DNA of 64,000 nucleotides from contig CM000153.2 in the NCBI GenBank assembly GCA_000004695.1, forward strand, positions 4,736,001 through 4,800,000. Direction: 5' to 3'. Position numbers and translations under genes: made by a program. The notes below the pieces were generated by a model. The model was given only the letters and a program-made list of their open reading frames with translations, had not been told where the DNA came from and made no database searches. Source of the DNA: Dictyostelium discoideum (Eukaryota). Below, piece after piece: positions 37,313 to 43,386 of the stretch. The first letter of the stretch is position 1, and each line of letters begins with the position of its first letter.

Positions 37313-38503
37313 TTAATAATTTGGATCAACTTTTTTTGATAATTTCATTAACATATAAGTGAAAATGAAAACTATTAAAACAAAAACAATGATAAGACAA
37401 TAGTTTAAAGTATCTTTTGTTGATTTTGATGTATAATCTTTTAAATTTAAATTTTGTCTTTGAATTTTTGAAGAACTTGTATCAACCAATTGACCAAGTT
37501 CATTTAATTTTTTATCTTCTTCCGATAGTTTTGTTGACATTGTATTTGAATGATTCTTTAAACTCTCTGAGTAATCTAATAGTTCAGATGTTAATAGCTC
37601 TTGTTGTAATCTTTGTTCCTCTGTTTTCTTTTCAAATGAATCATCATCCAATAACTCATTATTAAATAAATTATCATTCTCTGCTGCTTTATTACCTAAT
37701 AAACTCTTTAATTCTGAATTTCTATTTTGAAATTGATTTCTAAATCTTAATGCTGGTGATAAATTATTATTATTACTGCTACTAAAATTACTCCTATTTG
37801 GTGTTTTAATTATATTATTATTATTATTATTATTATTATTGCTATTATTATTATTGCTATTATCTACATTTTGTGGTATTAATTGGTCAATTTTCTTTTT
37901 TTCTTCTTTATTTCTTGTTTTCATTACAGTTTGAATTTCATCCATTTTCTTTGAATGTGAAATACTACTAGCTTGTAGACGTACGATACTGGGTTTATTT
38001 GAAATTGGTGAATTTAATTTCTCTTTATTTACAAGTCCAACTATTACATCTATCTTTCTAGAATATTCACTTAATGCTTCTTTTGATATAATATAATTTG
38101 ATGATGATGATGAGGGAGTAGATGTAGAAGATGATGGTGTTGTTGATGAAGATGAGGGAGAAGATAATTGAGCTATTTGGGGTGAACTTAATTGATTTGC
38201 AGTATTTGTATATAATTGAAATAATGGTGACGATAATGATTGTTGTTGCTGTTGTTGTTGCTGATGTTGATGTTGCTGTTTATTTTGTTCATACATTTTC
38301 TCATTTAATTGTTTTAATAGTGATAACATAGTTGGTATATATCTTTCAACTGTGAATGTATTATCAATGAGTACTGGTCTAATCTCACCTTCACCATTAA
38401 TAACATCAACTTTATCGTCATCCGCTATAATCTTTTCACATGATGATATTAATCTCTTTAAATTAATTTCTATCTTTTTAATATCACTTATATTTGTTGT
38501 CAT
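37313..38503 (-). CDS. Tail-anchored coiled-coil protein, possible ER/Golgi SNARE (Sec20/Use1/syntaxin-18-like), 396 aa
   Basis: Single ORF. A membrane-proximal heptad/SNARE-like segment (…LGQLVDTSSSKIQRQNLNLKDYTSKSTKDTL) lies immediately before one C-terminal TM helix (NYCLIIVFVLIVFIFTYMLM) and a short luminal tail. The middle is Gln/Ser/Asn-rich low complexity. The specific SNARE family is not determinable by eye. Confidence 0.4.
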   Translation of the reverse strand: MTTNISDIKKIEINLKRLISSCEKIIADDDKVDVINGEGEIRPVLIDNTFTVERYIPTMLSLLKQLNEKMYEQNKQQHQHQQQQQQQQSLSSPLFQLYTNTANQLSSPQIAQLSSPSSSSTTPSSSTSTPSSSSSNYIISKEALSEYSRKIDVIVGLVNKEKLNSPISNKPSIVRLQASSISHSKKMDEIQTVMKTRNKEEKKKIDQLIPQNVDNSNNNNSNNNNNNNNNIIKTPNRSNFSSSNNNNLSPALRFRNQFQNRNSELKSLLGNKAAENDNLFNNELLDDDSFEKKTEEQRLQQELLTSELLDYSESLKNHSNTMSTKLSEEDKKLNELGQLVDTSSSKIQRQNLNLKDYTSKSTKDTLNYCLIIVFVLIVFIFTYMLMKLSKKVDPNY

Positions 38504-38577
38504 TGTAATTTATACATATATAAATATAATTATTTTTCTGTGTGTTTTTATTATTTTCATTTAAATGTTTGGAATTG

Positions 38578-38611
<34 letters not shown>

Positions 38612-38706
38612 ATTTTCTGTTTTTTTTTTTTTTTAATTAAAAAATAAAAATTAAAACCACAGACACGTGTGTTTATTGTGAGTCAAAAAATAAAAACAAA
38701 AATAAA

Positions 38707-39636
38707 ATGGATATTTATAGTTTTAAGAATATTCAAATTGTGACCACCTCAAAAGAATTGGTGGACATTGTTTCACTAAAGATTCAAAATAATTTTCAAA
38801 CAGATAAGCAAAATTCAATTAGTCATATTCGTTCCACATATATGAAAAAAGTTAAATGCGCATCACAGTTCTATAATGAAAAATTAAATCAAATTGTTAT
38901 TGATTTTCCATTTTTAGAAGTATGTACTTATAAAATAAAATATATTTAAAAATACATGTAAAATAAAATTAATTTTTTTAATTTTTTTAATTTTTTTTTT
39001 TATATAAATAAAGAATATTCATCCATTTTATAAAGATATTTTAAATAAAGAATGTGATTTAAATAAATATAAAATAGAATTGGATCAAATTAGTATTGTT
39101 ATAAATTCAATTATTAAAATAAAAAATAAATATTTAAAATTATTGAAATATAGTAATTCATTAAACCAATTTAAACAATTGGAAATAATTTCAATAAATA
39201 GAATTAATAAATTAATTTTAAATTATGAATCATCTTTAAAATATTTAGAACAATTTAGAAAACATTTATTAAATTTACCATCAATTAATGCAAATACACC
39301 AACGCTATTAATAATTGGGTATCCATTAGTTGGTAAATCAACATTAACGAATATTCTAACAATTGCAAATGTTAATGTTGAAACATTAACTTCAAATTTA
39401 TTATTCGTTGGTAATACAAATTTTCAAAATAATAATAATAATAATAGTATTTTACAAGTTATAGATACTCAAAGTATATTTGATCATCCATTAGTAGATG
39501 AAATTGAAATCAAGTCTATTAATGCATTAACTCATTTAAATTGTTGTATTTTATTTTTAATTGATATTTCTGAACAATGTGGTTATTCAATTAAAAAACA
39601 AGTAAAGTATAAAACATTTAAAAATGAAAAACTATT

Positions 39637-39699
<63 letters not shown>

Positions 39700-39979
39700 T
39701 AATTTTTTTTTTTTTTTTTTTTTTTTAATACATTAGGTTGATTTATTTTTAAATGTTCAATTATTATTTTCTGACAAACCATCATTGATTTTATTAAATA
39801 AAATTGATATAAAAAATCCCAACCATTTACCTGAAAATGATTGGAAATTATTAAAAAATTTGGAAAAACCAATAAATAGTAGTTTTGGTGGTATACAATT
39901 AATACCAATGTCAAATTTAATAAGTGATAGTATTTTAAAAGTTAAAGAGAAAGCATATAACACTTTAAATGGGATTTAA
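38707..39979 (+). CDS. Nog1 (nucleolar GTP-binding protein 1/GTPBP4)-like truncated paralogue, 3 exons: 38707..38919, 39014..39601, 39737..39979 (~348 aa)
   Basis: Exon 1 matches the NOG1 N-terminal domain (FKNIQIVTTSKELVDIVSLKIQ…HIRSTYMKKVKCASQFYNEKLNQIVIDFPFLE|GTATGT). Exon 2 (aaag|AAT ATT CAT CCA TTT TAT) gives IHPFYKDIL… plus G1 'LLIIGYPLVGKSTLTN'. G3 is degenerate ('VIDTQSIFD' instead of DTPG). 'CILFLIDISEQCGYSIKKQ' ends the exon (donor CAA|GTAAAG). The intron contains (ATA)n/poly-T. Exon 3 (cattag|GTT GAT TTA TTT) gives VDLFLNVQLLFSDKPSLILLNKID (NKxD) and ends 'KAYNTLNGI*' with no NOGCT domain. Confidence 0.75.
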
Positions 39980-40483
39980 AATAAAAAAAAAAAAAAAAAA
40001 AAAACCTTTTTGGCAATAACCAAATTAAAAGAAAAAATAAAAAAATAAAAATAAAAAATTTGTTTATTATAATAAACATTGTTTCCTGTAATATATGTTC
40101 AAAATCATACGGTTGATTTTTTTTTTCTGAAAATGATGTTGGTTTTCTTTTTTTTTTTTTTTTTTTTTTTTTATAAAATGTAAAATGAAAGTGAACAACA
40201 AAAAAAAATACACTATTTTTAGGTTCCAAATATTCAAAATAATAGGCTAAATTTGCAATATTGTAAAACATAATCTCGATAGAAATACACAAAAGAAAAA
40301 AGGTTTATTTTTTTTTTTAAAAATTTTATTATCTTTTTTTTTCATTTAAATTTATTAAATTTAATTTAATTTTTTTTTTAATTAAATTATTGAAAAAAAA
40401 AAAAGTAAAGTAAACTTCAAAAAAAAAAAAAAAAGTAAATGGTTTAAATGAATGCTATTATTAGAACAAAAACCAAAATTATA

Positions 40484-40515
<32 letters not shown>

Positions 40516-40780
40516 CTTCACCTATTGAGGCTAATTTTGTAAAATTTAGATGTCAAAATCATTCCCAAATAGAAAAGGTCCATTATTTTAAAAAGAATGG
40601 TTTGTCCATGGACACTTTAATTAAATTTTAATAAAACATTTTTTTTAAAAACTTTTTTTTTTTTAATTGTGTCATACAACGTCATAGTAAAATATAAACT
40701 AATCTATTTTTAAAATTTTTTTTTTTTTTTTAAACCCAAAAATAAAAAAAAAAGTTAAAACACTTAGTAAGTTCTAAAAC

Positions 40781-40820
<40 letters not shown>

Positions 40821-41469
40821 TATAAAAGAGATAAAAAATATCTGTTTACTTTTTTTTTTCTAAACACTTTTTTATTTGAAAATAAGAAAAAAAAAAAAAA
40901 AAAAAATTAAAAAAAAAAAAAAAAAAAATAAAGACTATAAGTAATTTATTTTTTTGTGCATTGTTTATTATAATAAAATTTGACTGTTACATATCTTTTT
41001 TTTTTCACAGACTCTATTTTAAGCCTTTTTTTTTTTCAAAAAATATCTCCCAAATTGTGCCATTGCCCCTACTAAATTTTTTGAAAAAGTGTAAAAAAAA
41101 TAATGAGATTTCAATTCAGATTGAAATGTCGTTTATTATAATAAAATTACCAACCAATCAAATGATATAAAACTGATATTTTTTTTTTTTTTTTTTTTTT
41201 TCTGGGCTCGAAAGTTAATTTAAAATGACTCCACATAACTCGCACAATGAAAACTTTTAATCGGCCTATTTCTACTGAGATCAAAATAATTTAAATGAAA
41301 ATAATCCCCTAACTGTTTTCTTTTTTTTTTTTTATTTTTTTTTATTTAATTTTTTTTTTTTATTTTAATTTAAAAAAATTTTTTTTATTTTTTCGGTTAT
41401 AGATTTCCTTTTTTAAAGGGCGTGATACATATCTTTTTTATTTTTTTTTTTTTTTTCTAAAATTCTGAC

Positions 41470-41520
<51 letters not shown>

Positions 41521-42121
41521 AATATTTAATATTTTTTTTCTTTTTTCTTTTTTTTTTTTTCTTTTAGTTTAGTTTATGTGATTATTTCTGCAAAGTTACC
41601 AACCATTTTTAACACTTTTTTGTAAAATTTTGTAATTTTTTTTTTCAAATAAGTTTTTTTTTTTTTTTTTGTCATTTTATTTTCTTTTAAACTATTTTTT
41701 TTTTTTTATATTTTATAATAATAATTATTCTAAATATATAAAAATAAAATATTTTTATATATACAATAATTTTTTTTTTTATTTTAAAATATATATAAAT
41801 AGTTTAATAATTGTAAAATTATATTCACCAATTTTTTTTTTTAAAACATATATATAAATTTGGTTATAATTTTACATATTTTTTATTTTGGAGATTTTTT
41901 TAGATTTTTATTTTTCCACTGTATTATTATAAAACTTGACACTTTTTTCACAAATTTTTTTTTTTCACTGCGCAATCACACCATCCAAAAAAAATATCTT
42001 TTTCTTTTTTTTTCCAAAAATCACCCCATAATCATTTATTTATAAAAAAAAAAAAAATAGAAAACAAAAATAAAAAATAAAAAATATAAAAATAAAAAAT
42101 AAAAATATAAAAAATAAAAAC

Positions 42122-42153
<32 letters not shown>

Positions 42154-42202
42154 AAATAAATAAATAAATAAAATTCTTTATTTTTTTTTTTTTTTTTAAA
42201 AA

Positions 42203-43350
42203 ATGATAAAATTAATTTTATCATTAATATTTTTAATAATATGTTGTAATATAAATCCAAGTGAAAGTTTTAAATTAATCACATTAACAACTGGACCAAC
42301 AAGTGATTTAGGTTTTAATAATATGGTTAATCAAGGTAGAATAGGTGTTTCAAAAGCAATGAATATCGAAGATTCAAGAATATTTATTGTATCAGGTAGA
42401 AATGAAACTTATGCTTTGCTTTTACCATTGATTCAAAATGATGATATTGATTTAGTAATTTGTTCAAGTCAAGATCATGGCGATGCATGTAAAGAGATTG
42501 CAGCAATGTATATTGATAGTCCAACCATTAAAACCCAATTCTTAGTAAGAGGTAGTGGTGCAGCTACAAAGAATTTAATTCAAATCACTTACAACTATGC
42601 CTCAGTCAATTATATTAGTGGTATGTTTGCAGGTTTACAAACTGTAAAGAATAAGATTGGGTTCCTTTCACCTGGTTCCGCAGCCAACAATAATGACTCA
42701 TTTGTTTATGCATTTTGGATCGGTGCTAAGCAAGTGAATCCAGATGTTAAATTTTATTATTACAATATTGGTAGCTACCTCGACCAAGATAAAACCATAG
42801 CAGCAACTCAAGATCTTATCAATATCTATGGTTGTGATGTTATAGCCGATACATTGGACGATTTCTCTGCTGGTAATGTCGCAATCCAAAATAACCAATA
42901 TGCAATGGGTACCAATGGGTTCCCACAAAGAGATGTGTATGGTGAGAATGTAATTTTCAGTTATGCCTACAATTGGACAAAATATTTCTTACCTATCGCA
43001 GGTTCCGTTGCCAATGGTACTGTTCCAGGTAAATGGTATGCTGATTTCAATAAAGAAGATAATTATAATTTCTATGATCTTAGCTTTGGTTTCAAAGTTT
43101 CACAAAATACCAAAGATCTTCTCATCCAAAAAAGTCGTGTACTTGCTACAACCCCAAGAGCCGGTCATCCATATTATTGTAATGAATATATAGAACAATA
43201 CACTAAAAAATATAATTTACCAACACAAGCAGCTAATTCAAGTTGTATAAGTACTGCTGGTTTCTTTTATATTAATCAACCAGTTGGTGATATGATTTAT
43301 TTAGGTAGTTATAATATTAGATTATCAAAAGTAAGTAAAAAATTAAATTG

Positions 43351-43386
<36 letters not shown>

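Follow-up and report, generated by a model that had tools for sequence, protein, structure and literature searches.

DDB_G0286641, a gene on a 64-kb stretch of Dictyostelium discoideum AX4 DNA (hereafter, the window), is a real gene and a shortened, fast-evolving copy of the essential ribosome-assembly GTPase Nog1 (GTPBP4 in human) that lacks key catalytic residues; it is a small curiosity of its lineage rather than a core factor. Our preferred reading, to which we give a probability of roughly 0.55, is that it is a young, weakly selected, and dispensable partial duplicate of nog1, whose product would bind guanine nucleotide without hydrolyzing it and would not be stably incorporated into pre-60S particles. 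Databases already list the gene model, as a hypothetical protein. It belongs to a known family and is no new kind of system. It should be noted that the UniRef name of the protein was taken from Nog1 and is misleading; the entry should not carry the name “nucleolar guanosine triphosphate (GTP)-binding protein 1.”

The spliced product of the window is 100% identical, end to end, to annotated DDB_G0286641, and the three-exon model, with its coordinates, that had been proposed in an earlier note made from the sequence alone is correct. The joined exons (Table 1) give an in-frame coding sequence (CDS) of 1044 nucleotides that encodes 347 residues, and both introns are of the GT..AG type. No pseudogene lesions (frameshifts, nonsense codons, or lost splice sites) are present in the AX4 copy. 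The earlier note had asked whether a canonical full-length nog1 exists elsewhere in the genome. It does: DDB_G0285465 (Q54N72, NOG1_DICDI) encodes 674 residues on chromosome 4 at 3263032-3265230, and its product has been detected by proteomics (PMC6830349 supplementary tables). The window gene is thus not the sole Nog1 of D. discoideum, and is therefore a paralogue.

As had been claimed, the paralogue is colinear with NOG1/GTPBP4 through the N-terminal helical domain and the G domain. In a comparison with the sequences of solved structures, human GTPBP4 residues 3-337 align along it without rearrangement (E 4.2e-73), and the Nog1 proteins of yeast, S. pombe, and C. thermophilum, as well as the archaeal PH1320, are likewise colinear. 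The Pfam family NOG1_N (PF17835) matches residues 6-162 at 9.5e-29, spanning profile positions 1-159 of 160, and the G-domain signature NOG1 (PF06858) matches residues 234-291 over its whole length at 7.8e-23; there is also a match to MMR_HSR1 (3e-7). The same scan found no match to NOGCT (PF08155). The protein ends at the equivalent of about Nog1 residue 340, with its stop codon in or just past the last G-domain helix (model helix 330-346), and has no basic C-terminal tail.

Such an abrupt end, followed by a 2.2-kb unannotated stretch, could indicate an annotation artefact, in which the model covers just the 5' part of a full-length nog1 with missed exons, or is the only Nog1 in the genome. 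We consider this explanation refuted, barring trans-splicing over a long range. A tblastn search of the window with six NOGCT-containing Nog1 queries, at E values up to 10, found no NOGCT-like sequence. Translation of the downstream stretch in its three forward frames gave only low-complexity, homopolymer-rich sequence with no coding potential, and checks of the same interval for tRNAs and Rfam RNAs were also empty, so we rejected missed exons, tRNAs, and Rfam RNAs there. The description of this stretch as gene-free and AT-rich was accurate, as was the claim that the product stops right after the G domain without NOGCT or tail; the downstream NOGCT exons that would have refuted the earlier note are not in the window. 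Furthermore, a second D. discoideum strain has the same TAA stop, which can also be read in the sequence of a dead locus in D. cf. discoideum; the second strain has an independently made gene model of matching layout; and the canonical 674-residue gene lies at another position on chromosome 4. A copy in D. firmibasis likewise stops shortly past the G domain.

For the motif audit, an exhaustive HMMER search supplied 64 canonical Nog1 sequences; DDB_G0286641 was aligned to these, and we scored the 68 columns that are each at least 90% conserved among them. The AX4 protein keeps 44 of these columns and has lost 24. Kept are G173, P175, G178, K179, and S180 in G1, D222 in G3, K289 and D291 in G4, and S326 in G5; lost are N176L, T198S, H205N, P224Q, G225S, and L227F. 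The N domain is also heavily altered, with changes at 15 of its 37 conserved positions (the basic residues R28, K128, and R158 among them). None of the three intact copies known to us (those of AX4, the second strain, and D. firmibasis) has lost GK[ST], D222, NKxD, or S326.

The most striking change is at G3, where alignment and a pattern screen of homologues bear out the claim that DTQS replaces DTPG. The Pro and Gly of this motif are each 98% conserved in the 64 canonical sequences, and DTPG occurs in 240 of about 266 pattern-matching Nog1 homologues, with DTQS found only in four Dictyostelium copies (AX4, the second strain, D. cf. discoideum, and D. firmibasis). Substitution of the G3 glycine by alanine has been engineered: yeast Nog1 G223A is lethal and dominant-negative, and human GTPBP4 G224A is dominant-negative (PMC6968927). 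Switch I is atypical, as stated, with a two-residue deletion and T198S relative to the canonical form (VE--TLTSN in AX4 vs. VQPYAFTTK); the D. firmibasis copy has KFATK here. The reported Asn insertion is real and consists of six residues. The earlier note also had G1 and G4 retained, and this needs qualification. G4 (NKID) and the GK[ST] core of G1 are indeed present, but G1 is not fully intact, because its Asn is replaced by Leu, which had been overlooked. This residue of GxPNVGKS is 92% conserved; it is Leu in AX4 and in the second strain and is kept in D. firmibasis. It corresponds to AsnK, the K+-coordinating Asn inside G1 (yeast N177; PMC6968927).

In our exhaustive HMMER and word-indexed searches, the only close relatives were Dictyostelium copies, and every other match was no more than 47% identical. 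A second assembly labeled D. discoideum (ACTFIR) carries an intact copy of 351 residues, 95% identical, with the same three exons and the same neighborhood as AX4 (Use1 upstream, the Bmp/7TM gene downstream); its insertions and deletions relative to AX4 are all in frame. The assembly of D. cf. discoideum (ACTFIY) has a syntenic copy in the same neighborhood, with intact and conserved neighboring genes. This copy has a +1 insertion after 38717 (a frameshift at codon 5), a TAT to TAG change at codon 148 (Y148stop), a 51-nucleotide deletion (39305-39355) that takes out the P-loop, and deletions of 5 (39547-39551) and 2 (39943-39944) nucleotides. With one nonsense codon, three frameshifts, and loss of the P-loop, it is plainly dead.

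The D. firmibasis copy is only 208 residues long. It starts just before G1, reads GYPNVGKST in the P-loop, and keeps the second intron position. No NOG1_N sequence was found upstream of it. A tblastx comparison of its locus with the window found no shared neighbors, and the genes around it are unrelated, so it does not qualify as a positional orthologue. Judging from its locus tag and contig, it may be on a chromosome other than the counterpart of D. discoideum chromosome 4. The pseudogene orthologue in D. cf. discoideum argues against essentiality and, given also that only a G-domain copy was found in D. firmibasis, the gene is probably dispensable.

The question then is whether the intact copies are maintained at all. 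Between AX4 and ACTFIR there are 16.5 synonymous and 16.5 nonsynonymous differences, corresponding to a synonymous divergence (dS) of 0.089, a nonsynonymous divergence (dN) of 0.020, and a ratio dN/dS (omega) of 0.22; the excess of synonymous changes over neutrality is significant (binomial P = 1e-4). The AX4 CDS offers 211 single-nucleotide routes to a stop codon. Under neutrality, 6.3 nonsense changes would be expected relative to ACTFIR (probability of none, 2e-3) and 15.1 relative to the G domain of D. firmibasis (P = 3e-7), figures that count nonsense changes and not frameshifts, which are frequent in this homopolymer-rich DNA. The reading frames are therefore maintained by selection, as judged from their survival, the synonymous excess, and the in-frame insertions and deletions. 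This selection preserves the frame in AX4 and the second strain, weakly, and most residues are weakly constrained. By comparison, omega is 0.07 for use1 and 0.064 for exon 1 of the Bmp/7TM gene, so DDB_G0286641, at about three times these values, is significantly less constrained than the genes that flank it (Fisher P = 0.006). A branch-specific test of the intact against the dead lineages gave no significant difference (Fisher P = 0.41), there being too few substitutions.

The main rival to our reading is that the AX4 copy is a functionless relic en route to becoming a pseudogene, with an open reading frame that by chance is still unhit. We regard this as rather unlikely, and yet there is much on its side. 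The orthologous locus is multiply disabled in D. cf. discoideum, the whole N domain is absent from the D. firmibasis copy, and the 24 lost columns include catalytic positions. Over the G domain, AX4 and D. firmibasis differ with dS 0.45 and dN 0.30, and the resulting omega of 0.65 is only marginally below 1 (P = 0.047), so that evolution may be close to neutral over most of the protein; within D. discoideum the threefold relaxation relative to neighboring genes points the same way. The selection tests register past selection, and are compatible with a very recent loss of function in AX4. Other points count against our preferred reading: nucleotide binding is not guaranteed in a protein in which a third of the residues otherwise invariant in the family, as aligned here, have changed; a homologue-informed structure model would look folded even for an unstable protein; a full-text paper search for the gene ID DDB_G0286641 returned no match in the searchable text; and the parent-daughter relation and the date of duplication are based on the taxonomic distribution and on a tree with a long branch (see below). 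Against a relic stand the improbability of neutral survival and the synonymous excess given above, the in-frame nature of all ACTFIR insertions and deletions, the far better conservation of the CDS than of its own introns (3% vs. roughly 7%-20% mismatches between AX4 and ACTFIR), and the conservation across species of splice sites and nucleotide-binding residues.

Under our preferred reading, DDB_G0286641 would be a young partial duplicate of nog1 that, among the sequences searched, is restricted to the D. discoideum/D. firmibasis group. It retains the residues for guanine-nucleotide binding (GK[ST], the G3 Asp, NKxD, and the G5 Ser) and has lost those that serve the GTP-driven switch and cation-assisted hydrolysis (AsnK to Leu, a short switch I with T198S, and G3 Pro-Gly to Gln-Ser). 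Also missing are NOGCT and the tail, which in Nog1 is intertwined with Rlp24 and reaches into the exit tunnel. With the switch and catalytic residues gone, and neither NOGCT nor tail, the protein should be unable to do the job of Nog1. That it is impaired as a GTPase is a well-grounded expectation, from the literature on the G3 glycine. We infer a nucleotide-binding pseudo-GTPase, dead for both hydrolysis and switching, that would not become a stable part of pre-60S particles and that acts, if at all, as a kind of decoy. The most plausible activity would be to titrate, at a low level, some partner that the G domain of Nog1 has. The D. firmibasis copy comprises only the G domain and the AX4 N domain is heavily substituted; any shared activity is therefore most plausibly in the G domain.

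The predicted structure is in keeping with a folded G domain. The AlphaFold2 (AF2) model has a predicted local distance difference test score (pLDDT) of 89.4 and consists of two domains, of which the N domain is helical and the G domain complete. In a Foldseek search, its best whole-chain match was the archaeal protein PH1320 (PDB 2e87; template modeling scores 0.81/0.79), and it also matched the Nog1 chains of many pre-60S structures and aligned to the FeoB G domain. The modeled N and G domains, both of high confidence, superpose on ribosome-bound Nog1.

In a second rival reading, which this superposition favors, the protein would be a competitor that resembles the dominant-negative alleles, docking at the Nog1 site of the pre-60S particle via its N bundle and G domain, unable to cycle for loss of the G3 Gly, and thereby tuning 60S production (e.g., on starvation). 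The open reading frame is under selection, and mutating the residue altered here, the G3 glycine, renders both yeast and human Nog1 dominant-negative (PMC6968927). However, dominant-negative Nog1 retains its full tail, and the recruitment of Nog1 and Rlp24 is mutually dependent (PMC6968927). The segment that intertwines with Rlp24 and is required for recruitment lies within residues 427-479, and yeast Nog1 1-426 fails to support growth, whereas 1-479 does (PMC6968927); the paralogue stops at about 340. In addition, the 15 altered N-domain positions (R28, K128, and R158 included) count against docking, and a conserved function at the ribosomal site cannot be required where only the G domain is present (D. 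firmibasis) or the gene is lost (D. cf. discoideum). A ribosomal competitor of Nog1 is a less likely functional reading than titration of a G-domain partner; we hold it to be improbable. Similarly doubtful is a broader variant, in which a tail-less, dominant-negative-like protein binds GTP, cannot switch, and serves as a tunable brake or decoy on 60S maturation by titrating an activator or partner of the Nog1 G domain (e.g., at the growth-development transition).

In a neighbor-joining (NJ) tree of 68 sequences, the paralogue clade is on a very long branch beside a Leptophrys vorax transcript, near Acanthamoeba. We treated the pairing with the Leptophrys transcript as long-branch attraction and rejected it, and would take the tree to indicate only that the paralogue clade nests within eukaryotic Nog1.

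The features of the locus are collected in Table 1.

Table 1. Features in and around DDB_G0286641, with positions counted from the first nucleotide of the window
Feature	Position	Strand	Remarks
use1-like gene	37313..38503	minus	Use1 Pfam assigned to orthologous neighbor
Divergent intergenic region, 203 bp, presumed promoter	38504..38706	.	Between start codons of use1-like gene and Nog1 paralogue
Exon 1	38707..38919	+	Codons 1-71; NOG1_N helical domain begins (spliced CDS, Pfam)
Intron 1	38920..39013	+	GTATGT...AAAG, AT-rich; position same in ACTFIR strain and D. cf. discoideum
Exon 2	39014..39601	+	Codons 72-267; remaining NOG1_N, G domain up to G1, switch I, G3
G1/P-loop GYPLVGKST, residues 173-181	39317..39343	+	GK[ST] kept, Asn to Leu176
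Degenerate switch I/G2 NVNVETLTSNLLFVG	39368..39412	+	Two residues shorter than canonical VQPYAFTTKSLFVG, T198S
(AAT)6 Asn-run insertion N210-N215	39428..39445	+	Length differs between strains
G3 position DTQS, not DTPG (P224Q, G225S)	39464..39475	+	Alignment
Intron 2	39602..39736	+	GTAAAG...TTAG; position also used in D. firmibasis
Exon 3	39737..39979	+	Codons 268-347 and TAA; G4, G5, last G-domain helix
G4 NKID, residues 288-291	39797..39808	+	Alignment
G5 Ser326	39911..39913	+	Alignment
Intergenic stretch, 2.2 kb, AT-rich	39980..42202	.	No further exon, tRNA, or Rfam RNA

Some observations on the surrounding DNA are worth recording. The 203-bp divergent region contains a run of 32 A residues (38578-38609). 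A bidirectional promoter serving both the use1-like gene and the paralogue could keep the latter transcribed whether or not it is useful. Downstream of the gene there are three copies of a 15-nucleotide near-palindrome, GTTTATTATAATAAA (40062-40077, 40963-40978, and 41131-41146), and none elsewhere in the window; about 0.3 chance matches are expected, and no shuffle reached the observed count. It could be a putative binding site or the remnant of a repeat.

Repeat lengths vary among the assemblies. An (ATA)~20 microsatellite in intron 2 (39638-39699) is 47-48 nucleotides shorter in ACTFIR and D. cf. discoideum. The coding (AAT)6 run is 9 nucleotides longer in ACTFIR and, in D. cf. discoideum, 12 nucleotides longer and interrupted. 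This is ordinary Dictyostelium repeat instability, here inside a G domain. Incidentally, when compared with window positions 37313-43351, the ACTFIR and ACTFIY assemblies differ from AX4 with dS of about 0.09-0.2 in conserved flanking genes, far above the expectation within a population, which suggests cryptic divergence at the level of species.

Two other genes came to light in the relatives searched. Two genes upstream of the G-domain-only gene of D. firmibasis (contig L001, 5862-7514, minus strand) is a 550-residue GTPase of the MMR_HSR1/FeoB_N type with the P-loop GYPNVGKSS. A GC-rich JGI metagenome contig (L004, 596-1702) encodes a Nog1-like protein of 368 residues, P0233, with NOG1_N and a G domain. 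The protein terminates where its G domain does, the next gene is convergent, and the two-domain layout is in common with DDB_G0286641. A regular-expression screen had picked out P0233 as a second short Nog1 with a degenerate G3; we rejected it in that role, as its DTPG is intact.

Lineage-specific degenerate duplicates of housekeeping GTPases are unsurprising. What sets this one apart is a natural change at the G3 glycine, whose replacement in the laboratory turns Nog1 dominant-negative. Were the protein made, and were it to bind nucleotide, our search would have turned up its first pseudo-GTPase derived from Nog1, and one that amounts to a natural experiment on that glycine. The protein could then serve as bait for whatever activates the G domain of Nog1, with the advantage that the organism is genetically tractable. 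Independent of this, the gene is a clean, datable case of decay in a partial duplicate of an essential assembly factor, with several stages on display: the duplicate has no C-terminal half and has lost catalytic residues, the copy of one species has no N domain, and in another species the entire gene has died.

Among known systems, the closest are the eukaryotic Nog1/GTPBP4 proteins. These share with DDB_G0286641 the order of a NOG1_N bundle followed by an Obg/HAS-type G domain with Pfam NOG1, about 40%-43% identity and colinearity over residues 1-340, and GK[ST], NKxD, and the G5 Ser. In contrast, canonical Nog1 is 634-674 residues long, and DDB_G0286641 lacks NOGCT, the Rlp24-intertwining segment, and the exit-tunnel tail, and has DTQS at G3, Leu at AsnK, and a shortened switch I. 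Also unlike canonical Nog1, it evolves at least three times faster than its neighboring genes and is dispensable in a sister lineage. In layout and size, it is more like the archaeal PH1320 of P. horikoshii (356-357 residues), which has the same two domains, matches it in sequence at E 1e-34, and was crystallized with GDP bound. However, DDB_G0286641 is only 23%-28% identical to archaeal sequences, vs. 40%-43% to eukaryotic Nog1, and therefore the short form is a secondary truncation rather than the ancestral state.

PseudoGTPases are G-domain proteins that lack one or more of the G motifs. DDB_G0286641 resembles them in that its G3 and switch I are degenerate and its nucleotide-contacting motifs retained; its modeled G-domain fold goes together with the loss of G3, G2, and AsnK, where loss of at least one catalytic motif suffices for the class. 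In a full-text search, no paper was found to contain both Nog1 and pseudoGTPase, and we found no published Nog1-derived member. The nearest experimental counterparts are the engineered alleles nog1-G223A and GTPBP4-G224A, in which the same G3 glycine is replaced as in DDB_G0286641 (PMC6968927). Those alleles keep the full C-terminal half and the other motifs and stay stuck on the pre-60S particle, whereas DDB_G0286641 is tail-less and carries many further substitutions.

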